Positions 593-51,134 of a DNA stretch of 64,000 nt are shown here, in pieces. This DNA is from Alloascoidea hylecoeti (Eukaryota): assembly GCA_001600815.1 (NCBI GenBank), contig BCKZ01000015.1, forward strand, positions 186,001 through 250,000. Reading direction: 5' to 3'. Positions within the stretch are counted from its first letter, which is position 1, and every line of letters starts with the position of its first letter. Below the pieces are notes generated by a model, which searched no databases, had not been told where the DNA came from, and saw only the letters and a list, made by a program, of their open reading frames with translations. The position numbers and the translations under genes were made by a program.

Positions 593-3500
593 ATGAGCAG
601 TGATACTGTTATTCCAATAGACGAGCTTGTTGACTTTCTATTGGAAGCTGTGGCATTTACAGGATATGAGGGTATGCCAGTAACCATCGTGTAATTGTGT
701 GCTAGGCTGATGATACTAATTATTGACATTTAGGCTGTTCCTTGGAAAAACTATGGTCTTTTACTTCAGAAAAAGTGCCTGACCTAGATGATTGGCTCAA
801 AAGTGTAATATGGCGAGCACTCGTGTCTCAATATAGAGACGTGTTTGTCTTCAACGATGACAAAATGGTATGTTTTCCTTCTATCTTGTAAGTTTGTGGA
901 AACTAATACTAATTTCAATTATCTTAGATTGAAGATAAACAACTTATAAATGATGTGAATAATCTTATACTAAAATATGGCCAAAATATACGTGTTCTTA
1001 CAACAGAAGAAAAGCAATGGAAATCGTTAACATATATGCAAAAGGAAGGAAATCCAATCGGAACATATCCATTTCATTTATTATGTCATATAGCCAGTGC
1101 AGGCCCAAAAGGTATTAGCGGTATTAAGCTTGCTTCACAAAGTGGTCAAGATCCTCGATCTTTATTTAGTAGAATAAAACTTCTAATTGATTATGGTCTT
1201 GTTACAAAGCAACCGTTTGTTTATAAACAAGCTAATACTTTTATATATTATCATTCAACATTTGAAAAGGAAATAAAGTCAGCTGCTCCTGGTGGGAGCG
1301 AATACACAAGAAAGATTTACGAGGCTGTTAGATCTAGTGAAAATCAAATCATATTATTTTCCGATCTTAAAAGGCAGGTTGGTTTCGACCCATCAAATCC
1401 TACTAAATTTGGAAAATCAGTTAGAAGGTTAGAAGGATTGGGATTTTTTAAAAGAGTTAGAGCTAGAAAACCAAATGAAAACCGTCAGTATTATTGTGTT
1501 CAATTAATTCGTGATATAGAAGGGGAAGACGAATTAGAATCTGAAAGTGATTTTGATGATGATAATAATATTGAAGATGAAGAATTAATTAATGAAGAAC
1601 AAAATGCTGATGACAATGATAATGATGCCGGAGGAGAGACAACTCCATTAGGTAACTCTTTTACAATTGCACCAGAAATTGAAAATATAAATAAAAGTTC
1701 CCCACAATACTCAACTTCACTTCAGCTTTATAATCGTTTTTACCCTTTAGAGAATCAATTATATGAACTAGTAAAACAAGATAAACATGGTATATCAACA
1801 ATGAAAATAGTTCGTGCTTCTGTTGGAATTGGATTCTACAGAATTTTCCAAAAAGTGTTGGATGGGTTTTGTTTTACCGAACAACTCCAATCAAATCAAC
1901 CCCCTCATTTAGATCACTTGACTATTACAAGAAGTTATGATTTTAATTCAAAGGTCAAATTCTTTAGATATTTTTCAAACTCACAGATTAAAGAATTACA
2001 AGGCCAACCACCAAATCCAAACTGGGGTACATTTAAACCAATATCAAGATTGGGGATAGAAGAAAAAAGTTTATTTCAACTTAGCAAAGCCAATTATACG
2101 CCTATTGGTGGTGGCGCTTTAATATATCTAGATAAAGATGGTGTTGAAGATTTATTGTGGACGGTTAAACAAAATTTAACTGATAATCTTAAAGCAAATC
2201 ATTTTTATCACTTAAAAAGGATTTTGAGTCCAAAGATTGGTCGTCCAAGGAAAACTCCTTTAAATGAAAATAAACGAACTATATCTCAGCTTGATGAAAA
2301 TGACATTGCTGATGAAACACCGGTTAAGAAAAGTCGTGGTCGTCCAAAAAAGGTAAAGCCAGTAGAAACGCAAACCCCAACAATAAAAAAAGGTCGTGGT
2401 CGTTCAAAGAAAGTACAGTCTTCCAAGAAGGCTAGCAATAAGACTGGCAAGAATAAGGAAATCTCTGTTAATGATAATGATTCTTTGGATACCCATTCTT
2501 CAGATATACAAGAAGTTGAATCACTAATTCAGACAGAAACACCAGGTAGGAAATCAGGAGCCCATCGCTCCAAAAGTGCCCTACCAGCAGAAACTCCTCA
2601 ATCCTTAGTCATAAATTCTCATTCATCAACTCCTTCAACCTTAAAGAAACTTAGTCCATCAAAAATTATTGCACCAGCTAAGAGAAAATCTAGAAGGTTG
2701 ACCCAAACTGTCTTAAGTTTCGGTTCAAAAAAGAAGGAACCTAAACAAATAGTTGTGGAGACCTCTAATGATGTTGTAGTTCAACAGCCACAAGAAGTAC
2801 AAGAAGATATTATTGCGTCTACCCCAAATGAGAATGATGTAGATATGGAACCCAAAGAAGTAACTCCCGCTTTTCAGGTAATCAATTCAGCTAATATTGG
2901 ACAAAATCATGAAGAGGATGTGATTATGGAACCTAGTGAAATTACTAATACTCCATTGCTTGTTTCACCACACCCTCAAATAAACAATTCAACTATTGAT
3001 ACAAATGAGAAGGAAATTCCAACCGAGCCATCTCAAAAACAACATAAAGAAGGAGAAAATAAAAGAATTGGCCCAAGTATTTGGAGAAACCCACGAAACC
3101 GAAGTACTCAAACCCCTACTGGGGTACCATCACCTATCCATATTCCAATGAATTCAACGCCAACGAGGAGAAAGTCGAGAAGTATATCGACTCCAACTCC
3201 AACAGGAGCTGCCTATTCAATTAAAGCTATCAAAAGACAAGATGCATTATTAGAGACAGTTAAAAAAAATGGGGGAGTAACCGCTGGTGGTCAACCATTA
3301 ATTAAAGCAATTAATGATTTATTAACAGGTAACGAACCAAGTAAACTTGATAGAAAAACATTAGATCGAGATATAGATTCATTAATTTCAAAAGGAAAAA
3401 TAGAAAAACATAGGTTTACATTTTTTACTGAGTTGGGTACAGAAAAATCCCGTTATTTATTAATTGATAAACAAACTTATCCACCAGAAGAATTAATTTT

Positions 3501-5481
3501 TAAAAATATTGAAAAATTAAAAGCTTCTAAAAAAGCAATTCAAGTTCCTCCTAAGAAATTAGAAGTTATTGTTTCTGATTTTAAAATATTTGATACAAAT
3601 GCAAAGTATACAAAATATCGTGATCCTAATAAAGTTAAGACTGATTTAAAGAAGAAAGGACGAGTATTACCTTCATTTGAGAATGATAAAGGAACAAGTA
3701 CTCTTGATAAATTGAGACATGAAAGAGATGAAAAATTAGCAAAAAGGAAAGAAAAGGAGAAAAAAGAAATGGAATCAAAAGATAAACCTTCTACTCCAAA
3801 GCGTCTTTCCAGTTCTAGTATTAGTATCAATAACCCTCTTTCTAAAAAAGTTAAACAAACACCTGAAGAAAAACAGAGAGCTCGAACGGCAGTCTGGAGA
3901 AAATTAAAAAATAAAGTTTCTAATGATCCACTTTATGTTATAAGTAGGCATAGACCATTAAATAGTTATCAAAAAGAATTAATGGAAAATGGACAAGATG
4001 AAGATCAAGTTGTAAAGGAGAAATCAAAACGTGGAAAATTAAATTTTGATGAAATTCCAGAAGATATTTTCTTTAAAATTGTTTTAATTTCAAGATCAGT
4101 TAATAATTATCATGCAGATTGGGAATTAATTGGAAATTTTTTTAATAATAAGCATTCAAAAAGTGAATTTAAAAAATTATGGATACGAGTTATAAAAAAA
4201 TATGATGGTAGATTTGGAAGTTATAAAAATTCAAAACAATGGGAAGAAATTGTTTTAGCAGGAGTTCGTGATAAAACTTTTGATGTTACAAAATTAAAAG
4301 AAACAGATCTTCAATATTGTTTAGATTATTGGAATGAACATGATACATTTGAAACAATAAAAACTAGAAATAGTGATTTTGATGATATACCTTCAGATTC
4401 CAAAGATTTAGAAAAAGAATATGAATTTCTTCCAATTATTCATCGTGAAGAAAACTCAACAGTGGAGAATTATTTTGTTTCAAAATCAATGATTCAAAGA
4501 GATTTATTATCATGTCAATTGAGTTTTACCTATAAAGAATCAGATTTAAACGAATCAACAGATATTTTTAAACATCCTAAAAATGATAAAGGAGGTGAAG
4601 AAGAAACAAAAGTTGCTACTGCTATGAAGTCAATTATTGCTACTGAAACCATATCCTATGAACCAAAAATTGCTGCCAATATTTTAGCTCAATTTGATGA
4701 TCGGGTAGTTACTCCAGTTATTAATAAACTTGAAAAATATCATTTAATTTCGTTTTCAGGTAGAAATGTTAGACCACGAAATTTTAATTTCAGTAATGAT
4801 ATAAATATTAAATTACAAGCAGCTAATCCATCAGTAAATTCATCAAATGCTATACTAAAAAATAGTGTTGTCTACTTATCGAATGAATTTTATCATAAAT
4901 TGAACCCCATGTTTGATAGGAAAAAGGGAGTTTTAATATCTCGAGTCATACATGATAGTTCATTCATGTGTATATTTGATTTGATTGCAAGAAATCAGGT
5001 TGATTTGGTACTTGATAATCGAGTTCCGCAACATGTTTTGGAAAATGGTTATCATTCAAGGGGTTTTAAACCTGGAACCTATTTTGATGTTATAGTAAAG
5101 AAGAAAGGTTCAAATGATGATAAAGAAAGCAGTGAATTGATTGAACAAGATTTAAAAGAATTTATATCTGATATTCCAGGAGGAGAAAAATGTAGTAAAA
5201 TATGGATTGATATTAATGGGAATAAAAACATGACATTTTGGAGACTTTTAACTACATCGTTGTTATATTTAATATCTATCCACCCTGGAATTACAAAACC
5301 TTACATATACAATTATTATAAAGAACTTTTAACTTATGATGAGATTGAAGATATTATTGTTTGGTTAAAGAAGCGAAAAGCATTATTTGATGAAAAGTCT
5401 AAAAATGATGTTTATGGTGACAGTGATGGAATACAAGCGTATTGGGTTGATAAATTTTGGTATCATAGGTGGGAATGCTAA
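593..5481 (+). CDS. TFC3: RNA polymerase III transcription factor TFIIIC B-box-binding subunit (tau138); exons 593-671, 734-867, 928-5481
   Basis: Spliced N-terminus MSSDTVIPIDELVDFLLEAVAFTGYEGCSLEKLW. Introns 672-733 (GTATGC..TACTAAT..TAG) and 868-927 (GTATGT..TACTAAT..TAG) join in frame to the 1508-aa ORF. Motifs SGQDPRSL, YNRFYPLENQ, KLDRKT and KIWIDING..FW are typical of Tfc3. Confidence 0.85.
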
Positions 5482-5819
5482 ACATATTATGAATATACAA
5501 GTATAATGTTAATTGTGAAAGAGCTCAAGATTTATTTATAAACAAACTGGCTGCGAAAATACAAGATATCCATATACATATTCAGGAAAAAACCAAAAAG
5601 AAAATAATGAACAATGATAAGTGACGTTATTAACTTTAATTAAAGTCAATAATTAAGTATAAATTTAAAGATTATATATGAACTTGCAATATTTTGATAA
5701 ATAATTTCAAAAGCTAGTTACAGGTAACTAGCGTTAACATTGTGCATATAATATAAAACAGTACCAGCTATCCAGTGTTTCATCCAGCTGAAATCCAATT
5801 TATAATTATAAGTACACAC

Positions 5820-6578
5820 TCGGTCATTAAGGCACCAACTATCTACGTACAATACCATTCGAGGTCTTCTTTATAACTACTAAGAAACCGATATATGTCT
5901 AATCCCTTTGTTTTTTTGATATGATTCCTTTTCACAGAGCCATCTACCAAATTAATTTACAGATAATAGCCAGTAATGGCGTCCTTTGTTGGCGTTTTGG
6001 TGGTGGGTATTATGTTCCAATTATAAACAGCTTCACCCAACAACTAATCTACGAAACAATAAAGCATCTTTGTAAGCTGTCATCCCAACCTGTGCATAGT
6101 AAAGTACCAAGTTAGTTAGCCGACTCTTTTCAGTATCAGTAGAAGTTTAAAACACTTCCTTAGCTCTTGATGCAGATTACCCGCCATTGATAGATTATTG
6201 GATTATTGAAAGGGACAACCCGCCACTAACTAGAAATCTATTTATTCGACATGTTCTGCTCAAGGAAACTTCTTCCTATGTGTTTCAGTAGCCTAGCTTC
6301 CCTGTCTATTGGTGTAAGCTAAGTGCTTTGAAATCTTTTGTTTTATGCCATTGTAGCGGTGAAAAAGAAAACGGAGGCAGACAATTTCTTTGGGGCAGCC
6401 GGTTATAATGGGTTCAACCTTTAAATATATTGGGTATAACCTTAGAGGAGGTCAAGCTCAGCTTCTATCTGACTAAAATTAGAGTGACTATTTAACAAAA
6501 CACTCTATCGACCCATTTGGATACCTTTACTGAGATTCTGGCGCTTAGTAGAGAATCCTTACGTAGTCTACTTTCTCT
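5820..6578 (+). ncRNA. Candidate telomerase RNA (TER/TLC1-like); 5' end approximate
   Basis: No credible ORF. Nested long-range helices: 5843-49/6560-66, 5877-84/6544-51, 5954-70/6461-80, 5981-87/6210-16, 5997-6009/6178-90, 6027-33/6074-80. Template-like AACCCGCCACTAAC at 6217-6230, pseudoknot at 6318-6377, TATAAAA at 5752-58, and ATAAGT..TTAAC..CAG pseudo-intron at 6579-6640. Confidence 0.6.
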
Positions 6579-7379
6579 ATAAGTAAAGTAGCTAGTATTA
6601 ATATTTCAGAAATATAATTAACTCCTTGATTTCATTACAGGCCTAGGGTATTACGATGAGACATTTTAAGGTACAATTTTCTACAATTGCAAGTGTTAAT
6701 TATTTAAAGAAATTGAATTGAATAAAAATAAACAACTCACAAAAGAGATCTAGACGAAATAATGGAGTTAATTATACCATGAAAAGGTCCAATCATGAAC
6801 ATTAAAAGGCATTTGTTTAATATTATAATATTTCATCTAGTAACAGTTTAATTTCTATGAACCAAAAAATTAAGATAATCGATAATTTTCATGATGGATT
6901 GAAAATTGATCATGAAGATCGTGTATTTAAAAATAAAATGTCTTCTTGAATTTAAACAAATTGAGTTAGTTTAATTTTGCGAAGGAGTAATTAATTCGTT
7001 TAGAATTGTGTCGATTACTAGACTAACTACTTTAGTTGTTGTGGGGTGAATGCACATGACAGTGGAAAGATTCTTACTAATTAGCCCCAATACACTTTAC
7101 GAAACTTACCTCTTTTTGTAATTATAAAACAATATAACAAACGATTTATCAAGCACCATATTAAATTAAAGGTTCATCTCGGATCAAATTCACCACTTAA
7201 CTAAACAACTATTGTAATTTGTAGCACTATCAAACTTAAACTCAAAGGATAATAATCCCGGAAAGGAGTTTCAATTGATCTACTTGAGAGAAACTTGACG
7301 GACCTGGACCCTGGTACAATTTCTCCGAGTTTTAGGATATGGTTTTCGCGGCTGAATTTAATTTTAAATCCGTCATACA

Positions 7380-7387
7380 GTCACGTG
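7380..7387 (+). promoter_or_regulatory. Cbf1/bHLH-type E-box GTCACGTG upstream of PDR16
   Basis: RTCACGTG match. The same motif occurs at 28859-28866 (PCT1/ARO10-like divergent promoter) and 36800-36807 (PUT2 promoter). Confidence 0.4.
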
Positions 7388-7885
7388 GTAACACATAATT
7401 GCAAGATGGATATCCAGAATCTAGATCTGATGAAGGAATAGCTGGAGAATGCAATTGTTGTGATATTTCACTGAGCGGTGTCCAAATTCCAATTGCAGGA
7501 TAAAAGAAGTTTGGGGTGGTCTACAGGTGCGAAACTGCTATAATCTGTTCTGGGTCGTGGAGTGGTAAGGCCTGGGAAGAGCGGGCCTGGAAGAGCAGAA
7601 TTGCCCGTGCGAGCGATCTTAGAGCCAATTCTTGCCACCATATACTTGACACAATAGAGCGCAGGCAGTCGTAGAAGGGCGGATCCAAAGACTGTGCTTT
7701 GCTGGGGAAAATTGGGACATGCCGAAAGATCCGAAGGAGTTGTAGGCATAACAGCTCAACTGGCAGGTCCGGCAGCTGCTGAAAATACTTTCCGGCTGCC
7801 GGCTGACTGATCGAAGGCAACCGCATTTCATGTATTTAATTTTTATTTAATTCCATTTAATTTTTACTTCTGTCTGGCTTTATAA

Positions 7886-9091
<1,206 letters not shown>

Positions 9092-9550
9092 TTATGGGGA
9101 CCATTTTTCTTATATACCACAAGTCTCATCAATAAAAGGTAATAAAACTAAAAGACTTCAAAATCATCGATATATACTACCAACCCCCCCATAATTCTGC
9201 CTGTTTTTGCATTTCAATTTTTCATTCTTAAGGCATAAAGTTAAACATATATATTTTATTGATGTGGAAAAGCATTTTGCTACTTTTCTAAATGATATGA
9301 TCATCATCAAAACATCTATGTTTAATCAATATGCAACGTTCAATAAAAGGTGTTACTAATCACTATTTTTTTGATACACTTATTTCTTCCCGTTCGGATC
9401 TTGGTTTTTAACACTTTTTTTAAATTTTGAAAGTTTTTTCTTTTGTACTATATTATAACTAGTTTTAAATATGATTGATTTTAAAGATATATTATACTAT
9501 TAAAACATAATATCTTTGTAGATAATTGTAATAATACATTCCATAATTAT

Positions 9551-27399: not shown

Positions 27400-28722
27400 T
27401 TAATTGAGTTGTTTACCATTGGATTGCTTAATGCTTGTTGGAATTTTTATTTTTCTAGCCATAGGAGGTTCTTCAGATTGTGGACTTTGAAATATCTCAT
27501 ATTCTTCTTCTTCGTTATCTTTTTCTGATTGCGATGGAGATTGAGAATCAGAGTTATTATTATCATTATCCCGATCATCATCATTATCATATATATCTAA
27601 AAATGGATTAAAAGGAACCGGTGAATATTCAGAGTCTTTATCTCTGACACGATTCACCCAAACTTTGGCCTTTTCTAAAAATGTGGAGCCATTCCTACCA
27701 TTTGTAGAATGTGATGGAGAACCAGTATAATTTTCTGCAAATTCGGAAGCAGGTGAAGTAAGACCATCTTTTAAAGAGAATAATGATGAAGTACTACCAT
27801 TACGGCTATTCCTAGAATTTTTCAACTTCAATCTTAATTGGTTATTATTAATAATAGTTTTTCTCAATAATTCACGAACTTCAGAATATAAATCTCTTGA
27901 CATATCATTCATATTATTTTTAGCCCAATAACCTCTAAAATCAGAAATATGTTTTTTGAAATCTAATTCATTTTTTTTCAACCATGATACATTTAATTCT
28001 TTTCTAGTTGCACCCCGTGCAAAATTCCTCATTAAATATTTGTCATAATCTCTAATGATTTTAGTTATAATATCTGAAGTTGATATACCATCAGTTCTTT
28101 GGGTTGTTAAAAACATTCCAGCTTTTTTAATAGGTTCATAAATATCACCAGAATCACCAGATGCATATGGTATATCATCATGGGCGACGTAATCGATATT
28201 GTGTTCCTTTAAGAATTCGGGGGTAACACACCAGGGGGCATTTGGTATGACTTCATCAACCCATTTACAATGATTTAAAGTTTCACATCGCTGAACATCA
28301 GTTAAGACGGTGAGACCTTTTTTGGAATGAGTATCTTCATCACTTGGGATACCACATACCAAAGTAACATTAGGTAAAGCTTTTTTTGATTGTTCTAATT
28401 GACGCATATGACCCAGATGAAACAAGTCAAAAACACCATCAGCATAAATTCTTATTGCCCTATCAGTTGGAGGGTTATTAAAAGGGAACCCACGGGGTCT
28501 ATATTTTCTATATTCTGGTAAAACATGTGAGTCTAGTTCATCTTCCAATTCTCTAAATTCGATTTGATCGTCGCTCAGCTTAGTCTGTTGCTTCTTATGC
28601 GGGAGTTCATTCTCATTCTCAACATCATTTTCTAGAGAGCCATTTGAAGTATCTTCCTTGTCATAGACATTATCTGACACGTCCGAGTCTTCAGAATGAA
28701 GACGTTTTCTTGACGGGGACAT
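27400..28722 (-). CDS. PCT1: Choline-phosphate cytidylyltransferase
   Basis: RIYADGVFDLFHLGHMRQLEQ (HxGH), CKWVDEVIPNAPW, IDYVAHDDIPY and RTDGISTSDIITKIIRDYD. Confidence 0.95.
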   Translation of the reverse strand: MSPSRKRLHSEDSDVSDNVYDKEDTSNGSLENDVENENELPHKKQQTKLSDDQIEFRELEDELDSHVLPEYRKYRPRGFPFNNPPTDRAIRIYADGVFDLFHLGHMRQLEQSKKALPNVTLVCGIPSDEDTHSKKGLTVLTDVQRCETLNHCKWVDEVIPNAPWCVTPEFLKEHNIDYVAHDDIPYASGDSGDIYEPIKKAGMFLTTQRTDGISTSDIITKIIRDYDKYLMRNFARGATRKELNVSWLKKNELDFKKHISDFRGYWAKNNMNDMSRDLYSEVRELLRKTIINNNQLRLKLKNSRNSRNGSTSSLFSLKDGLTSPASEFAENYTGSPSHSTNGRNGSTFLEKAKVWVNRVRDKDSEYSPVPFNPFLDIYDNDDDRDNDNNNSDSQSPSQSEKDNEEEEYEIFQSPQSEEPPMARKIKIPTSIKQSNGKQLN

Positions 28723-28956: not shown

Positions 28957-30717
28957 ATGGAATCGCAGGTCGATCTAGGAGAGTATATTTTCACACGCCT
29001 GAAGCAAATTGGGGTCCGCTCGGCGTTTGGCGTACCAGGAGAATCGAACCTACGATTGTTGGATTATCTTTATGGGAACAGAGGCCTAGGCATTAGTTGG
29101 ATTGGCTGTTGTAACGAACTAAATGCGGCATATGCAGCCGATGGATATGGTCGAGTAAGAGGGATCCCTGGGATCTTGATCACAACCTATGGTGTTGGTG
29201 AATTATCTGCTCTAAATGGAATATCCGGTGCCTTTGCCGAGCATTCGCCTATTTTACATATTGTTGGGACGCCAGCTTCAGCAGCAACAGCGGCTTCCAA
29301 TCTACACGGCCTGCCCGGACGAGGGAGAGAACGACCCAGTATCGATGCCTATTTTGCGATGTCCGCTCCGGTTCGCTGTGCTTGTGCTGTGTTGAACTAC
29401 ACGACTCTATCAAGTGCACCGGATCTGATCGACTCCACCATTTTGGAGTGTTGGAAAAGATCACAACCGGCCTACTTATATGTTCCTTCGGACCTTCCTG
29501 CTTTAAAAGTATCCGGTAAAAACTTACAATCCCCACTCCAATTGACGATTAATAACGACAAACCTGGGCTAGATGCCCAGATCTTAGATGAAATACTAAA
29601 ACTTATTTATTCTTCTACAACTCCAATATTCATAGTGGATACCCTGGCTGAAAGGCACAGAGCGACTTCCCTGGTTCGAAAGTTGGTCAACAAAACAAGA
29701 TTCAATGCTTTCACTACTCTACTGGGTAAAGGTATCATTGATGAAACCAATCCATCTTTCGTAGGAGTTTATAATGGCTCTTTGTCTCTACCTGGTATTA
29801 AAGAAACTGTATTGTCTTCAGATTTAATCATTAACATTGGCCCTTTATTATCCCCTGAGACTATTACTAATACTAGTACGGATAACACGATTGCTGCTAC
29901 CGTCACCTTACATCCTGATTATATATCCATCAATTCTACACATTATGATAATGTTCATTTCATCCCCATCTTATCCGCTCTATTAAGTGATATAGATATC
30001 TCCCGTTTACCCCGTCATACTTTAAAACCTTCAATTGCTCCACCCCCCGCAATCCCTTCGAAAGCTGACATATCCCAATCTTATTTTGTCGAGGCAATTT
30101 CAAACTTCTTAATGCCAAATGATATATTTGTCGTTGAGACAGGTACTTTCCAATACTCCTTACCTGATGTTAAATTTAAGAAGAATACAAAATCAATCAC
30201 TCAATTTTTCTTCTCTTCAATTGGATTTGCATTACCTGCCACTTTAGGTGTATCCATTGCAAATCATGAAACAAACGGGAAAGGTAGAGTGATATTAGTC
30301 GAAGGTGATGGTTCTGCACAAATGACCATTCAAGAATTAGGTACAATGATAAAATTAGGGTTAACTCCTACTATTTTTTTAATCAATAACGATGGATATA
30401 GTATGGAAAGAGCACATTCTCATTGGGATCCTGAAATGCCTTATAATAATATATGTCCAAAATGGAAATGGACCGAGTTATTAAGTGCTTTTGGAGGCGA
30501 TGATGGTATTAATATTTTTTCAGTCACTATAAAAACTAAAAATGAATTAGATTCACTATTATCTAATGATAATGAATTTTTAAAATCAAATAAAATTCAA
30601 TTAATTGAAATAGTTATGGATGTTTTGGATATACCTTGGAGATTATCTGAAGAAGTTAAATTGCAAGCTGATAAGGATACTCAATTATATAAAGAATTTA
30701 TAAATAGTGTCAAGTAA
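28957..30717 (+). CDS. ThDP-dependent 2-oxo-acid decarboxylase family protein, Aro10/Pdc-like, with altered active-site residues
   Basis: CNELNAAYAADGY, ITTYGVGELSALNG and the ThDP motif GDGSAQMTIQE..INNDGY. N-terminal features are closest to Aro10. Confidence 0.9.
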   Translation: MESQVDLGEYIFTRLKQIGVRSAFGVPGESNLRLLDYLYGNRGLGISWIGCCNELNAAYAADGYGRVRGIPGILITTYGVGELSALNGISGAFAEHSPILHIVGTPASAATAASNLHGLPGRGRERPSIDAYFAMSAPVRCACAVLNYTTLSSAPDLIDSTILECWKRSQPAYLYVPSDLPALKVSGKNLQSPLQLTINNDKPGLDAQILDEILKLIYSSTTPIFIVDTLAERHRATSLVRKLVNKTRFNAFTTLLGKGIIDETNPSFVGVYNGSLSLPGIKETVLSSDLIINIGPLLSPETITNTSTDNTIAATVTLHPDYISINSTHYDNVHFIPILSALLSDIDISRLPRHTLKPSIAPPPAIPSKADISQSYFVEAISNFLMPNDIFVVETGTFQYSLPDVKFKKNTKSITQFFFSSIGFALPATLGVSIANHETNGKGRVILVEGDGSAQMTIQELGTMIKLGLTPTIFLINNDGYSMERAHSHWDPEMPYNNICPKWKWTELLSAFGGDDGINIFSVTIKTKNELDSLLSNDNEFLKSNKIQLIEIVMDVLDIPWRLSEEVKLQADKDTQLYKEFINSVK

Positions 30718-34925: not shown

Positions 34926-36934
34926 TTAAATTTGATGGTTTGATAAGTAAGATATCCTGCTGATAAAAAACTGTTACAGTATTATAATTATTGTGGTATA
35001 GATAATAATTTTTAGTAATCATCATGTGTAAACTTAGTAAACTATACATATCAAGTTTATTTATTATTATAACTAGATTGGTAAACCTCATAAATTCTAT
35101 ATCTTCTGAGTTATGTCTCCAATGAGACCTCGATGTTGAAGTGAATTAAATTGATCTACACATATAGAATTATGTTGATCGATGTTGAAAGTGATTAATG
35201 AAGATGCTCAAACAATGTAACACAATATTAATATTGCCGGAGATCGTGTCTGTCGAGTAGAAGCAAAGGATAAGCCTGGCTTTCATATTTAAATGGATAA
35301 GTATATCTTTGCGCTTAGTCAAGGCCTAGGACCATCGTACAATTATACACGTGCCATGAACAGCCTTATGCTTCATCAAGCATTTCTCTATTCCGAATTC
35401 CAATAGAACATAAATTGTTAACTATAAAATAATTTTTATTTATCAATCCCTTGGTTCCTTCCCATCCATTTTAAATAAGTTAATAGTAGTGCATTCACCA
35501 AAAAAAGTTTATTGCCACCTTTTCCATGTTGCCATAAACGTCATCGGCATGTGTCACCTTTTTGCTTTCTTATTAGAGTATATCAAATGGACGACGTATC
35601 CTAATCTTGACAAATGAACCTATTTTGTTGACCCTGGATTTTTTTGTAGACTTTCTTTATTTCATCCCACCTTAATTTCTCGTCTTCTTATTTCTCTAAG
35701 TATTCTTCAATCCAGCGCTTAACAATTAGCTTTGGTATCAATCTCTCCTTTTATGAATTGGTCCATTTCAGCCTTCTTCAAGAGTTCCTACATCTTTTTA
35801 GTATGATTCATTGATCATGATATCGAGACCTTTCTTTGAGCATATTAATATCGGGTTGTTCTTTCTGTATCTTGATCTTGGAACTTGTGTTGATTCTAAA
35901 TTTAGATCTAGTTCTTATTGAGTCAACCCCTAAAATATTTGCCCAAAGAAATTTCATCGGATCATATTCATCATCTAGATCAGTGATTTGGCGATTGTAA
36001 ATTTGTATTCTCAAGAAACTCGAGTATCGCATAAACCTTATATTTTTCTTCCTGTTAACATTCAACTTGCTTGTTCCCCTAATATTAATGGATCACATAA
36101 TCATAATTTACCCAGGAGCACCGATCTACAAATAAGATTTCATCAATTTTGTCTTATAACTCAGGAATTATTAATGTTTGTTAATTTAGAAATTATTGGT
36201 CTGAACACGAAGAATGATTTCTCAGCTTCAACAAATGAGCGGTGTACAAATAGAAGATCTGTAAGCAGTTTATATGTTAAGAATACTTAAATACAAATTC
36301 ATTTATCGATTATATGTTTTTAATTTTTGATGAAGAAATTATAGGAAGCAAATGAATCAAATTATTTTAGTTCCGAATGCTTCTTCAATCTCCATCGCGA
36401 TCGCGCTTCTCCTTACCAGTAATACACATCGCTCAATGCACATTCCTAACTCAAATATCTGGCATCAATTATATATCTGCCTACTCTATCAAACATAACC
36501 TCTATTTACCCATTAGAAGATCTCGTCTTCAAGTCATTCAATATTTTACAAATTTGTCATTGTATCCTATAAGTTATATGCATGCGCGCATAGACAATAG
36601 AAGTTAATTATAAGCTTCATACTTGCATTTATTAATCGTCCTTCAATGGCAGTAAATACCTAATTATACTAGATTCAATGCAATATCTGTAAAACTTTTT
36701 GCACTATTTTCCATTTCTAATCTGGGGGAAAGTGTGAGGAACTATGAGGAATTGTGAGGAATTAGTAAAATAAATATTAACTAGCTTTTTATGCTACATA
36801 TCACGTGCAGGGTATATCTCGGCCGAGACCATATAGAACTCAACAATAAAAGTTTACAGATTCCCCACTTTTCACTTATATTCTAGTTTTTAGTTAATTC
36901 TCAATTGATTAAAATTTTCCTAACCTTTTTTTCA

Positions 36935-39124: not shown

Positions 39125-42100
39125 ATGTCCTCAAATCATCAAGACCAGTCCAGTAGCTCACAGGGCCCAACCTCAGGAAGCTCGGGAGGGCCTTCAGCAA
39201 CAAATTCCAACCAATCTCAGGCTTCTTCTAATCTGGCCATTCCAGGCCAGCAGCACAGGGGTTCCAGAAATCTTCACATTGCTCATCGTCGATCTCCTTC
39301 TGAATTGACCACTCTGATGAGTAGGTACTTCTATTTAGCTGCTAGTTTTATAAAACATGATAAATTACTAACCTTTGCTCTTTTCCCCCTTTTTAGTTGA
39401 ACAATTCAATCTTCAACGTCAGTTGGAGATGGTTCAAGCCCAGCACCAACAACTTCTAGCTCAGCAACAACAGTTGAGCCAGGGTGGCTTCATCCCCCAG
39501 CAGCCCTCAATGATGAACGTTCCAGGAACAAATGCTCCTCAAAGCTATATGTCAAATTCAGGCACGTTTGGTCAATTCTCCTCTGCTGCTCCTACGCCAC
39601 CACCTGGGTTTGGACCCACCGGCCATCGCAGAATTCAGTCATCAATTCCCGGAACATTAGGTCCTCCTCAAAATATGTTTGATAGGAGAAATAACAATAG
39701 TAATGATCAAAACCAAGCTCATGGAATGGGTCATAGCAGAAGACACTCCCTGGGAATTTCAGAGGCCAAAAAAGCTGCTGCTTTGGTTCAGTCACAACGT
39801 TCTTCAGGTACTGATTCCTCTTCTTCTGCTTCGGTTCCAGTTCCAGTTCCAGTTCCTATCCAGATTTCTGCTCCTACTTCAAATGCAACTTCTGCTCCAT
39901 CTTTCAAATTCCCTCCAACTCCTATCCAGGAAGTTGACACTCCTGTTTCACCAAACCCTCCGCCAAATGCTCATTCCAGATCTCAATCCCTGGCTTATGG
40001 CCAAAACCAGAGATCATCCTATCAAAGACCATCCTACCAGTTCCCACCCATGAAAGAAACCACACCTACTATTGGCCCTATTCCATCCCATGTGAGAGGT
40101 GGCTCAAATCAGTATGGTCATGGCCGTTCAAGCTCAAGTAATAACTGGCGACAATCCCAGAATCTTCAATCTAAAGATTATCTTACTGCTTCTGCATTTA
40201 CTCCTAGTCATGCGGGACGTGGATCGGTTTCATCTTCATCAGGTTTCCAAGGAGGATACGGTAATCAACGTAAAAGTTTGTTTGCCCCTTACTTGCCCCA
40301 ATCATCATTACCTGGGTTAATAGCTGAAGGTAAATTGGTTACTGGTATCCTACGTGTAAATAAGAAAAACAGATCTGATGCTTATGTTGCTACCGATGGT
40401 TTATTAGATGCTGATATTTTCATTTGTGGTTCTAAAGATAGAAATAGAGCCTTGGAAGGTGATTTAGTTGCTATAGAGTTATTAGTTGTTGATGAAGTAT
40501 GGGAGTCAAAGAAGACCAAAGAGGAGAAGAAAAGAAGAAAAGATGCGGCTTCTTCCTCTTCAAACGTTGATATTAGAAATGATGCCAGTACTCTAACCAA
40601 TACTAATTCAAACTCTTCTGGTAATAATGGTTCTACAGGTTTACAAAGAAAAGGTAGTTTAAAACAACGTCCAACACAAAAGAAAAATGACGATGTTGAG
40701 GTTGAAGGTCAAAGTTTGCTCCTCGTTGAAGAAGAAGAAATCAGTGATGATTATAAACCTTTATACACTGGTCATGTTGTTGCTGTTGTTGATAGAATCC
40801 CAGGTCAGTTATTTAGTGGTACTTTAGGATTACTCCGTCCATCTCAAGCTAGTAAGAGAAATGATGATAATAAGAAAAATGATAAGCCAAAGATTGTTTG
40901 GTTCAAACCAACTGATAAAAAAGTCCCATTAATTGCTATTCCAACAGAACAAGCTCCTGCAGATTTTGTTGAAAATCATCAAAAGTATGCTGATAAGTTA
41001 TTTGTTGCCTCAATTAAAAGATGGCCCATTACTTCTTTACATCCATTTGGTAATTTGGTTGGTGAAATTGGTACAATTGATAATCGCGAAACGGAAGTTG
41101 TTTCAATTATGCGTGATAATAACTTCATGTGTGATGAATATCCTAATGAATTGGATACAAATTATGTACCTGAAGGTGAAGAGCCAAAGGTAGTTCGTCC
41201 AGAAGATTTGGAATATTTAGAAACGATACCTGATCCAGAAACTTATGTAATCCCAAAAGATATTTCTGAAAAGAGAAGAGATTTTAGCGATGAATATGTT
41301 TTAGCTTTCAGCGCTGATGGATTATTATCCGATCAAGCATTTCACATTAAAAAAATATCTGAAGAAAGAATTGAATTGGCTATTCATATTTCAGATGTTA
41401 CAAGTTTCATTGATAACAAATCAGTTCTAGATAAAAAGGCTAAGAAAAGATCAACCACTGTATTTTTAGCTCAAAAAGCTGCTCATATGTTGCCTTCCAA
41501 ATTGAACAAATTGGTTTCATTTGCTGAATCTAAAGCATCATTAGCTATTACTATATCTTTTGAAATTGATACGGAATCTTTTGAAGTTAAAGATGTCTGG
41601 ATTGGAGAAAGTGTGATTAAACCAAAAAAATTGTTAAGTTATAATCTTCTCGATAAAGTTATATTAAATGAAGCAATCTCGAAGGGTGATGTGCCTTCAA
41701 AAGATAAATTAAATTCTGCTTCTATTGACTATATCAAGACTTTGGCGCTTGTATCACGAGAATTCAAACGTCAAAGATTACACAATCAAGAGTTGGATGA
41801 TTCTCATACTTTGTCATTACTTGATCAATTAGATGATGAACCAGTTTCTTTAAGCTTGAATATTTATGAAACTAAACCATCGACAAGAGTAATTAATGAA
41901 ATACTTATTAAAGTTAATACCGCAGTTGCAGAGAAATTATTTGCAAAATTGGGAAATAAAGCATTCTTGCGTCGCCAACCATTACCAACTTTACAAGCTG
42001 CTCAATCATTCATTAAGAAAGCCAAAGCATTGGGATATAATCTGAATACAGCATCTAGTTCCACTTTACAAAATGGAATCTTTAAAGTTAAAGATGTTAC

Positions 42101-43148
42101 TATCAGAAATGCTTTGCAGACATTATTGATTAAATGTATGTCTCGTGGTAAATATTTTGTTCCAGGTAAATGTGATGCTGAGAACACCAATCATTATATC
42201 TTTGATCTGGCTGTTTATACACATTTTACAAGTCCTCTACGTAGATATGCGGATCACATTGTTCATAGACAATTAAAGGCTATTCTTTTGAACACCGTGG
42301 AGGATTACGAGGAAACTGAAGATTCATTAAAAATGGCTGCTGATTATTGCAATTTTAAGAAAGATTGTGCTAAATCTGCTCAGGATCAATCGATTCATTT
42401 AATTCTGTCTCACACAATAAATGACATGTCAAAAACAACTGGACAATTAATTTGTATGGGTACTATCATTCAAGTTTATGAATCTGCCTTTGATGTATAT
42501 ATTCCAGATTTTGGTATTGAAAAAAGAGTTCATGGTGATCAATTACCATTGAAAAAGGCAGAGTTTGATAAGTCCTCTCGTGTTTTAGAATTGTATTGGG
42601 AGAAAGATGTTGATTCTGCCACTTTTATTCCTGAAGATGAAAGAGTTCCATTTGCTTATCATAAATCTATTAAGAATAGATATCGGGCATCGAGCATTGC
42701 ATCGGCGGCTGCTCAAGGTCGTGCTAGTATCGAGGGTAAGTTGGGTTTAAATGAAGATGCTACAAAGAATCTTGATATCGGAAATCTATCTTTGAATTCT
42801 AAATCTACTTCTGGATCTCCAGATGATTCTGGAAACGATAACCACTCGAAGAGCATGCCCTCTTCCCCTGCGCATGGTGCTACTCCTCAGGTTGATATTT
42901 TACAATCGCCTATTGATGCACCACAGCGAACTTCCTCATTGACTCTAAAGTCAGGTCTTTCAATACCAGGTTCACTATCCAACCCATTGAGTTCTTATCT
43001 TGAATCAACATTAACAAGAGTTGAAAATGAAGATTATATCCAAGAGATTAGGGAATTGAAGCAAGTTCCTGTTTTACTTCGTGCTGAAATTGGCATGGCC
43101 TTACCTTGTTTGACTGTTAGGGCAATTAATCCCTTTTTCAAGGGATAA
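39125..43148 (+). CDS. SSD1: Ssd1 RNB/Dis3L2-family mRNA-binding pseudonuclease; exons 39125-39320, 39397-43148
   Basis: Intron 39321-39396 (GTAGGT..TACTAAC..TAG) gives LHIAHRRSPSELTTLMIEQFNLQ. Also RKSLFAPYLPQ, YTHFTSPLRRYAD and HxRxxS Cbk1-type sites. The RNB catalytic Asp cluster is degenerate (FSADGLLSDQAF), as expected for Ssd1. Confidence 0.95.
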
Positions 43149-50213: not shown

Positions 50214-51134
50214 CTATTCAGACCATTTTTTATCTGTAAGCGTTTCATAAGCTTCAACATATTTGGCTTTGGTTTTGGAAATAATCTCTTCAGGAAGAGA
50301 AACCCCATTCTTACCAGCTAAACCTTCAGATGTCAGCCAATCTCTCATAAACTGTTTATCATATGAATTTTGACTTTGACCGAGTTTGTAAGAATCGGCT
50401 CTCCAAAACCTTGAAGAATCTGGTGTTAAAACTTCATCAACCAGAACAATGTTACCTTCTTCGTCAAGACCAAACTCGAATTTTGTATCGGCAATAATAA
50501 TACCTTTAGATTTTGCATAATCTCTAGCAACCACATAAAGTTTGATTGCCAATTGCTCAATTTTGGCAGCTAAGTCTTTTCCTACAATTTCAGCCGCTTT
50601 TTCAGGTGAAATATTTTCATCATGCTCACCTTGGTCTGCTTTCGTAGATGGTGTGTAGATAGGTGTATCAAATTCTTCAGATTCGTGTAGACCCTCTTTA
50701 ACTTTAATACCATGGACAGTGCCAGATTTTTTGTATTCTTTCCAAGCAGATCCAGTGATATAACCTCTGACAATTACTTCAAGCGGGATCAACTTAAACT
50801 TCTGAACCAAAAGTGTACGATCTTCCAATTGAGTTTTGTACTTTTCGTTGGACAATTCTTTTGGAAGATGAGAAAATAACTCTTCATTGGTTGTCACACC
50901 ATGATACAAGTGATGTTTTGTGTATGGAGCTAATAAATTGAACCAAAAAATAGATAATTGAGTTAAAATTTTCCCTTTCGCTGGGATACCATTATTCATG
51001 ATAACATCATATGCAGATATTCTATCGGTTGCAACAAAAAGCAGTAAACTATCAGAGACAGTATATATATCTCTGACTTTTCCTTGAGCAAGAAGAGGAA
51101 GATTTCCGTCAAGATTAGTTGTTGTGAGGGACAT
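50214..51134 (-). CDS. ADE1: SAICAR synthetase
   Basis: GKVRDIY, ATDRISAYDV, PLEVIVRGYITGSAWKEY, ADTKFEFG and DEVLTPDSSRFW. Confidence 0.97.
   Translation of the reverse strand: MSLTTTNLDGNLPLLAQGKVRDIYTVSDSLLLFVATDRISAYDVIMNNGIPAKGKILTQLSIFWFNLLAPYTKHHLYHGVTTNEELFSHLPKELSNEKYKTQLEDRTLLVQKFKLIPLEVIVRGYITGSAWKEYKKSGTVHGIKVKEGLHESEEFDTPIYTPSTKADQGEHDENISPEKAAEIVGKDLAAKIEQLAIKLYVVARDYAKSKGIIIADTKFEFGLDEEGNIVLVDEVLTPDSSRFWRADSYKLGQSQNSYDKQFMRDWLTSEGLAGKNGVSLPEEIISKTKAKYVEAYETLTDKKWSE

Follow-up and report, generated by a model that had tools for sequence, protein, structure and literature searches.

The window analyzed here, a 64,000-nt stretch of a contig of Alloascoidea hylecoeti, is AT-rich budding-yeast DNA (overall GC 34%) with long ORFs and short introns, and the feature discussed below lies in a 2.45-kb spacer between a TFC3-like gene (1036–5481, + strand) and a SEC14-like gene (7931–9091, + strand). 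Across the whole 64 kb, ARAGORN reported no tRNA gene and no Rfam family was detected at gathering level, and we found no link in the literature between TFC3 synteny and telomerase RNA (TER). As regards the host, the regions 50214–51134 and 39429–43148 hold ADE1 and SSD1, whose best non-self protein identities amount to 73% and 57%, respectively, and whose relatives are scattered across many yeast families; judging from these comparisons, A. hylecoeti is an orphan lineage. The three CTG codons of ADE1 all fall at invariant leucine columns (3/3), which indicates that CTG is read as leucine under the standard code and therefore places the organism outside the CTG-Ser and CTG-Ala clades.

Within the spacer, positions 5713–6577 form a GC-elevated, ORF-free island of 865 nt, which we regard as the putative body of a ~0.85-kb noncoding RNA, tentatively assigned to the + strand and a candidate for the TER of this yeast. 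The edges were obtained by a three-segment maximum-likelihood fit of the GC content over 5482–7200, which yields a GC of 37.6% for the island versus 21.2% for the left flank and 27.0% for the right flank; the island has no ORF of at least 80 aa and displays many stops in all frames. The best-fit right edge (6577) is located 2 nt before an ATAAGT hexamer. Because this edge is soft, and because an AT-rich cassette always falls outside a GC island, we used the 2-lnL support ranges of the edges (5701–5817 on the left, 6473–6697 on the right) instead of the point estimate. The best-fit left edge coincides exactly with a perfect 8–9-bp hairpin (5713–5733; GCUAGUUAC / GUAACUAGC), which is strand-symmetric and therefore uninformative on strand.

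Immediately past the right edge, the + strand can be read as an intron-like cassette. AUAAGU (6579–6584) resembles a 5′ splice site with an A at +1, the heptamer AAUUAAC (6616–6622; AATTAAC in DNA, holding TTAAC at 6618–6622) resembles a branch site, and CAG (6638–6640), 19 nt past the branch A, resembles a 3′ splice site, for a total span of 62 nt. The positions of these three motifs and the 62-nt span agree with those given by the first-pass annotation, and so does the absence of a canonical Sm site, since no AU5-6GR is found upstream of ATAAGT and the stretch 6570–6578 reads ACTTTCTCT instead. When compared with what defines an A-first cassette (i.e., one with a +1 A), the locus displays the hexamer (AUAAGU/AUACGU, here at 6579–6584) and a YAG at an intron-like distance (CAG, 6638–6640), but lacks a consensus branch (GCUAACU in Aspergilli, CTAAY locally), AAUUAAC at 6616–6622 being the best candidate; pairing of this heptamer with the U2 snRNA by a U–G wobble is conceivable. 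Two further features, both spotted after the fact, are that the 62-nt cassette is strikingly unstructured (z +1.90; 197/200 shuffles fold at least as well) and that it is preceded by a pyrimidine-rich tail, ACUUUCUCU (6570–6578, + strand; 8/9 pyrimidines), such an upstream tract being present at 1 of the 57 ATAAGT sites of the window. This tail, which contains neither AU5-6GR nor a long U run, is predicted to be largely single-stranded in the ensemble of 5740–6578 (mean P(unpaired) 0.92) and may represent an Sm/Lsm-like site ending at the proposed mature 3′ end, 6578. Farther downstream, 81–92 nt past CAG, two adjoining AATAAA hexamers (6721–6732, + strand) might act as poly(A) signals in a precursor transcript, but this is weak evidence because hexamers of this kind turn up often in AT-rich spacer.

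The last stable hairpin before the cassette (6519–6558, + strand) comprises a 10-bp stem with two G–U pairs (6525–6534/6544–6553), extended by 4 bp (6519–6522/6555–6558), and its pairs have probabilities of at least 0.79–0.87 in the 5740–6578 ensemble. A terminal helix thus does precede ATAAGT as previously annotated, but at a distance of 20 nt when counted from this stable hairpin, or of 10 nt when counted from the end, at 6568, of a weak 3-bp extension, and not of 12 nt. The local fold of 6500–6578 has a z of −1.41, with 18/200 shuffles folding as well. At larger scale, the full-length fold (879 nt) is no better than that of shuffled sequences on either strand (z −0.70 on +, −0.38 on −), and 150-nt sliding windows (n = 46, on two strands) return no significant fold, with a lowest z of −2.30, and of −2.13 within the island. 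The 3′ domain nonetheless leans toward the + strand (6432–6581: z −1.88 on + vs. +0.93 on −; 6482–6631: −1.55 vs. +0.27), and its helices contain G–U pairs, which turn into A–C on the minus strand. At the other end, the region 5700–5830 is a strong 5′ hairpin region (z −2.79; 0/200 shuffles fold as well).

To situate the cassette among the introns of this yeast, we looked at the canonical cassettes of the form GTA[AT]GT...CTAAY...YAG, of which the window contains five, with lengths of 60, 61, 61, 63, and 65 nt. All five (5/5) have CTAAC or CTAAT as their branch, when the cassette under study has TTAAC, that is, U for C. One of them is certainly a real intron: in the TFC3-like gene, the ATG (865–867) is directly followed by a 60-nt intron (868–927; GTATGT...TACTAAT...TAG) whose removal restores a long reading frame; since this intron abuts the start codon, exon 1 consists of the ATG alone. 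The match in intron length that had been put forward earlier is hence retained in substance, 62 nt being within the local range of 60–65 nt, although the exact list of six lengths that accompanied it was not reproduced. Overall, the 62-nt length and the 19-nt branch–acceptor distance fit the local introns, and the branch does not.

The motif set by itself is not above chance frequency. With both strands counted, the window contains 57 copies of ATAAGT versus 59.2±7.8 in dinucleotide shuffles, and the composite pattern ATAAGT-N25-45-YTAAY-N5-28-YAG occurs 2 times versus 4.31±2.70 in shuffles, 83/100 of which contain at least 2 instances. A rule-based scan of both strands of the window, with cassettes restricted to 55–68 nt and the branch to 6–30 nt before the first YAG, identified three A-first cassettes including the present one, and the other two sit at unrelated places (27947–28007, + strand; 36742–36801, minus strand). 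The latter, a 60-nt ATATGT...TACTAAT...TAG cassette with a better branch than the one at 6616–6622, shares bases with a 10-nt tandem repeat located upstream of an aldehyde dehydrogenase gene and was treated as a chance control. What is unusual is only the position of the cassette. In a 3-Mb simulation based on the dinucleotide composition of the spacer itself, A-first cassettes arise at a rate of 9.6e-5 per nt, which amounts to an expectation of 0.022 for the right-edge interval (225 nt) on the + strand and of 0.033 when the left edge on the other strand is allowed as well. The coincidence of the cassette with the edge of the island is therefore suggestive (p about 0.02–0.03). As the motifs occur at chance frequency and only their position stands out at this level, the cassette lends modest support to the presence of a TER, and the first-pass annotation went too far in treating it as independent support for the TER call.

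The identity of the upstream RNA as a TER is unproven. Among the RNA datasets listed, none covers 4500–9100, and no contig (0) from three metatranscriptome runs could be placed on 5400–8000. No telomerase family of Rfam is found around the locus at E up to 10, where only noise is returned; this blank comes as no surprise, since, beyond a few modeled genera, yeast TERs are described as escaping covariance-model searches (PMC6115765). As no Rfam family explains the island, TER is left as the main large type of yeast RNA that Rfam would miss. With regard to the template, five or six direct-repeat candidates can be listed, spread over both strands, and none is statistically compelling. On the + strand, CCAGCT is repeated with a 20-nt spacing and ATCCAG with a 12-nt spacing at 5764–5789 (candidates D and D′, unsupported), in a region whose positions 5770–5787 have a mean P(unpaired) of 0.74; GTACA is repeated 35 nt apart at 5812–5851; and ACCCGCCA occurs twice, 39 nt apart (6179–6186 and 6218–6225; candidate A, also unsupported), forming the longest GC-rich direct repeat of the spacer. 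ACCCGCCA is the complement of TGGCGGGT, one TGGCG3-4 telomere-repeat unit listed for Ogataea polymorpha (PMC7857110), and its G/U-rich partners are found at 5977–6008 (UGGCGU twice, UGGUGGUGGGU). On the minus strand, the complement of 5977–6008 is a 32-nt U-free, C/A-rich tract in which ACGCCA is repeated 13 nt apart. Telomere repeat units are listed as reaching up to 43 nt in yeasts (PMC7857110). Tandem arrays of four of these candidate units (39, 20, and 12 nt on the + strand, 13 nt on the minus strand; the 35-nt unit of 5812–5851 and a 14-nt unit at 7575–7596 were left out of the scan) gave 0 matches in JGI metagenome contigs, a blank that decides nothing because the JGI collection may not hold the chromosome ends of this organism. 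As to conserved elements of TERs, AUGA is described as a conserved CS3 motif (PMC3851723). A U7 tract, GAUAUGAUU, and CCUUUUCAC at 5909–5936 (+ strand) together form a speculative, pseudoknot-like U-rich element, whose pairing with GUGAAAA at 6359–6365 is equally speculative and does not appear in the energy-model prediction. It is possible to draw U and A tracts as well as a 3′ domain with several helices, yet no fold beats shuffled sequences.

The remainder of the spacer also contains features that have to be considered. On the minus strand, a perfect Sm-type site, AAUUUUUUGG (AAU6GG), lies at 6862–6853, ~275 nt from the cassette, when about 0.08 such sites are expected in the spacer by our estimate; an Sm-like CUUUUUGG is found near 5600–5590; and a canonical GUAAGU (7109–7104) precedes GGCUAAU and UAG in a stretch of 33 nt (7077–7109), a set of signals that is too short for a local intron and lies downstream, on that strand, of a second GC-rich block of the same spacer. 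This block (7240–7830) has a GC of 42–53%, higher than that of the island. All three minus-strand frames are open in it for about 100 codons, and one of them comprises stretches of 101, 62, and 29 codons split by single stops and starts with an F-box-like LPDLPVELL. The block has no match in Pfam at E up to 10, and of 1.84 billion representatives one matches its 101-aa ORF, weakly (E 6.9e-4). On both strands the block folds less well than shuffles (z −1.32 to +1.94), with z above zero for 11 of the 12 values obtained from the six windows starting at 7432–7682. The block may be an orphan gene, a decaying gene, or something else. The minus-strand Sm site and the GUAAGU look as convincing as the signals of the + strand cassette. 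Taken together, the minus-strand Sm site, the GUAAGU, and the GC-rich block indicate that motifs resembling RNA-processing signals arise easily in this spacer.

A signal of the AUAAGU type is said to have been described by Qi in 2015 in Neurospora and in early Taphrinomycotina. According to the following reports, 5′ splice sites of the AUA(A/C)GU form prevent step 2 of splicing and give the Aspergillus TER its 3′ end (PMC4299874; PMC3603654), a G-to-A change at +1 allows step 1 and blocks step 2 in budding-yeast and human introns (PMC4299874), and, in the A. niger cassette, the +1 A makes the mature TER, an A-to-G change leading to full splicing and loss of function (PMC4299874). In Aspergilli, AUAAGU is found beside a pyrimidine-rich site and with a conserved GCUAACU branch (PMC3603654). 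The background invoked in the first-pass annotation is borne out by these sources for Aspergillus and for Schizosaccharomyces pombe TER1 (PMC4299874; PMC3603654). The cassette of A. hylecoeti resembles the Aspergillus/Neurospora type by its AUAAGU with a +1 A, its upstream pyrimidine tract, its branch-like site and YAG, its short intron-sized span, and the cleavage without exon ligation that is predicted from it (PMC4299874; PMC3603654). However, the host is here a budding yeast and not a member of the Pezizomycotina, the branch reads AAUUAAC instead of GCUAACU (PMC3603654), and the tract has only a 3-U run instead of the C3-5U7-12 reported in Aspergilli.

In budding yeasts, spliceosomal processing of TERs has been reported in Candida and Ogataea, with G-first cassettes (PMC6115765; PMC3851723; PMC4993307), the known TERs outside Saccharomycetaceae are described as carrying splice signals (PMC6115765), and candidate motifs are mentioned for Yarrowia (PMC6746865). 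Among the literature matches listed, and within the portions of text available, no A-first signal is described in Saccharomycotina, AUAAGU appearing only in two reports on filamentous fungi. The closest counterpart by host is the TER of Hansenula (Ogataea) polymorpha, a short budding-yeast TER (689 nt vs. ~0.85 kb for our candidate) reported to have no canonical Sm site, a pyrimidine-rich AUUUCCUG just before its 5′ splice site GUGAGU, and an intron-like cassette of about 50–60 nt (PMC3851723). That cassette is nonetheless G-first (GUGAGU) with a perfect UACUAAC, in contrast to the A-first cassette and weak branch found here, and it has been studied by RACE mapping of the RNA ends and by mutation of its signals (PMC3851723). 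In S. pombe, the mature 3′ end of TER1 results from the first step of the spliceosome, as would that of the present RNA, and the second exon reached by the precursor is short (PMC4299874). What keeps step 2 from occurring there is described as a strong branch combined with a long distance from the branch to the 3′ splice site, both absent here, and the G-first donor and AU6GG Sm site of TER1 do not apply to the present locus. As for Saccharomyces cerevisiae TLC1, the likeness lies in a TER end located in an AU-rich region, and in the GUAA/GUAG and CUUG-like motifs found here at 6582–6628, which could act as terminator motifs of the Nrd1/Nab3 type. TLC1, whose termination uses Nrd1/Nab3 (PMC3384322), differs by its canonical Sm site AAU5GG and its reported lack of splice signals (PMC6115765; PMC3603654).

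On this basis, if an RNA of ~0.85 kb, most plausibly the TER of this orphan budding yeast, were made from the + strand of the island 5713–6577, its transcript would continue into the AT-rich spacer past the island, where the spliceosome could recognize AUAAGU (6579), the weak branch AAUUAAC (6616–6622), and CAG (6640), and carry out the first transesterification. The +1 A of the intron would then cause the second splicing step to fail, so that exon 1 would be freed with its 3′ end at 6578, and its single-stranded tail ACUUUCUCU could hold Sm/Lsm proteins. We give this tentative reading, namely a functional A-first cassette undergoing first-step-only spliceosomal cleavage at 6579, a probability of roughly 0.3. 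This value is in line with a rough weighing in which a + strand TER with an A-first cassette is assigned a prior of about 0.03, the position counts about 20-fold for, the pyrimidine tail about 2-fold for, and the off-consensus branch about 2.5-fold against. In favor of A-first cleavage, we counted the position at the island edge, the unpaired pyrimidine tract, the unstructured 62-nt cassette, the + lean of the 3′ domain, and the precedent for the mechanism; against it, the chance-level motifs, the off-consensus branch, the lack of an Sm consensus, of a fold signal, and of a validated template, the presence on the minus strand of a template-like tract (complement of 5977–6008) and of the Sm-type AAUUUUUUGG, and the fact that the bases AUAAGUAAAGUAG...CUUG could double as terminator motifs of the Nrd1/Nab3 type.

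The motifs could also be fortuitous, ATAAGT, TTAAC, and CAG being mere AT-rich spacer sequence, and a + strand RNA (a TER or another lncRNA) could end by ordinary budding-yeast routes, that is, by Nrd1–Nab3–Sen1 termination and exosome trimming or by cleavage and polyadenylation. This explanation, which we consider doubtful though quite tenable, would account for the frequency of the cassette pattern (2 vs. 4.31±2.70 expected) and of ATAAGT (57 vs. 59.2), for the two further A-first cassettes at unrelated places, one of them with the better branch TACTAAT, for the departure of the present branch from the local consensus, and for the GUAA, GUAG, and CUUG motifs and two AATAAA within 6582–6732, and it has a precedent in the Nrd1/Nab3-dependent termination of S. 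cerevisiae TLC1 (PMC3384322). It would, however, leave to coincidence both the location at the island edge (p about 0.02–0.03) and the pyrimidine-rich, unpaired nature of the upstream tract, and it sits less well with the splice signals described in known budding-yeast TERs outside Saccharomycetaceae (PMC6115765). In an unlikely scenario, transcription of the island proceeds from the minus strand and yields a TER or another RNA, in which case the cassette would lie upstream of the gene, on the wrong strand, and be irrelevant. The 32-nt U-free C/A-rich tract with its ACGCCA repeat has the composition expected of a template, the T/G-rich repeat that it implies is similar to T-rich repeats of the TTGG type given for some Trichomonascaceae (PMC7857110), the Sm-like CUUUUUGG near 5600–5590 lies on that same strand, and folding over the whole length favors neither strand. 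Yet the 3′ domain (6432–6631) folds better on the + strand, its G–U pairs becoming A–C on the minus strand, the order U-tract, U-tract, A-tract expected of a post-template pseudoknot is found only on the + strand, and A-free runs as long as that of 5977–6008 are not unique in the window, one of 35 nt being present at 29360.

Two other explanations do away with the island as a TER gene. The island might be no RNA gene at all but the relic of a decayed gene, or a regulatory sequence, into which RNA features have been read, an option that we deem improbable: the lack of significant structure in the 46 windows on two strands (lowest z −2.30; −2.13 in the island), the lack of an Rfam match, and the adjoining, equally unexplained and even GC-richer block at 7240–7830 would all fit, but the sharp rise in GC of an 865-nt block above both of its flanks, its lack of ORF with many stops in all frames, and the strong 5′ hairpin region at 5700–5830 (z −2.79, equaled by 0/200 shuffles) are less readily explained in this manner. 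Finally, the TER of the spacer could be encoded by the other block, on the minus strand from ~7830 down to 6853, and end at AAUUUUUUGG. The high GC of 7240–7830 (42–53%), an 8-nt direct repeat with a 14-nt spacing at 7575–7596, C-rich on the minus strand, the perfect AAU6GG at 6862–6853 (about 0.08 expected in the spacer), and the near absence of protein relatives (nothing in Pfam at E up to 10; one match of the 101-aa ORF at E 6.9e-4 among 1.84 billion) speak for this proposal. It is made very improbable by a local folding worse than that of shuffles on both strands, more reminiscent of coding or random sequence, and by the minus-strand frame of 101, 62, and 29 codons split by single stops and starting with the F-box-like LPDLPVELL, which suggests a decaying or orphan protein gene instead.

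To our knowledge, the AUAAGU signal has otherwise been described only in Pezizomycotina and early Taphrinomycotina. With regard to A-first cleavage of a + strand TER at 6579, the cassette is a testable lead and not a result, and the broader proposition that a deep orphan lineage of budding yeasts retains an A-first AUAAGU as a first-step-only signal for TER 3′-end formation is, in our view, somewhat speculative. If it were true, the A-first type would go back to the ancestor shared by all three ascomycete subphyla, and would later have been replaced by G-first cassettes, as in Candida and Ogataea, or lost, as in Saccharomycetaceae. If the cassette is real, Saccharomycotina would have their first example of an A-first spliceosomal-cleavage signal, which would speak for an ancestral origin of this mechanism in Ascomycota; the cassette would also provide a handle for finding telomerase RNAs in those budding-yeast clades in which they are, according to the cited source, still unannotated (PMC6115765).
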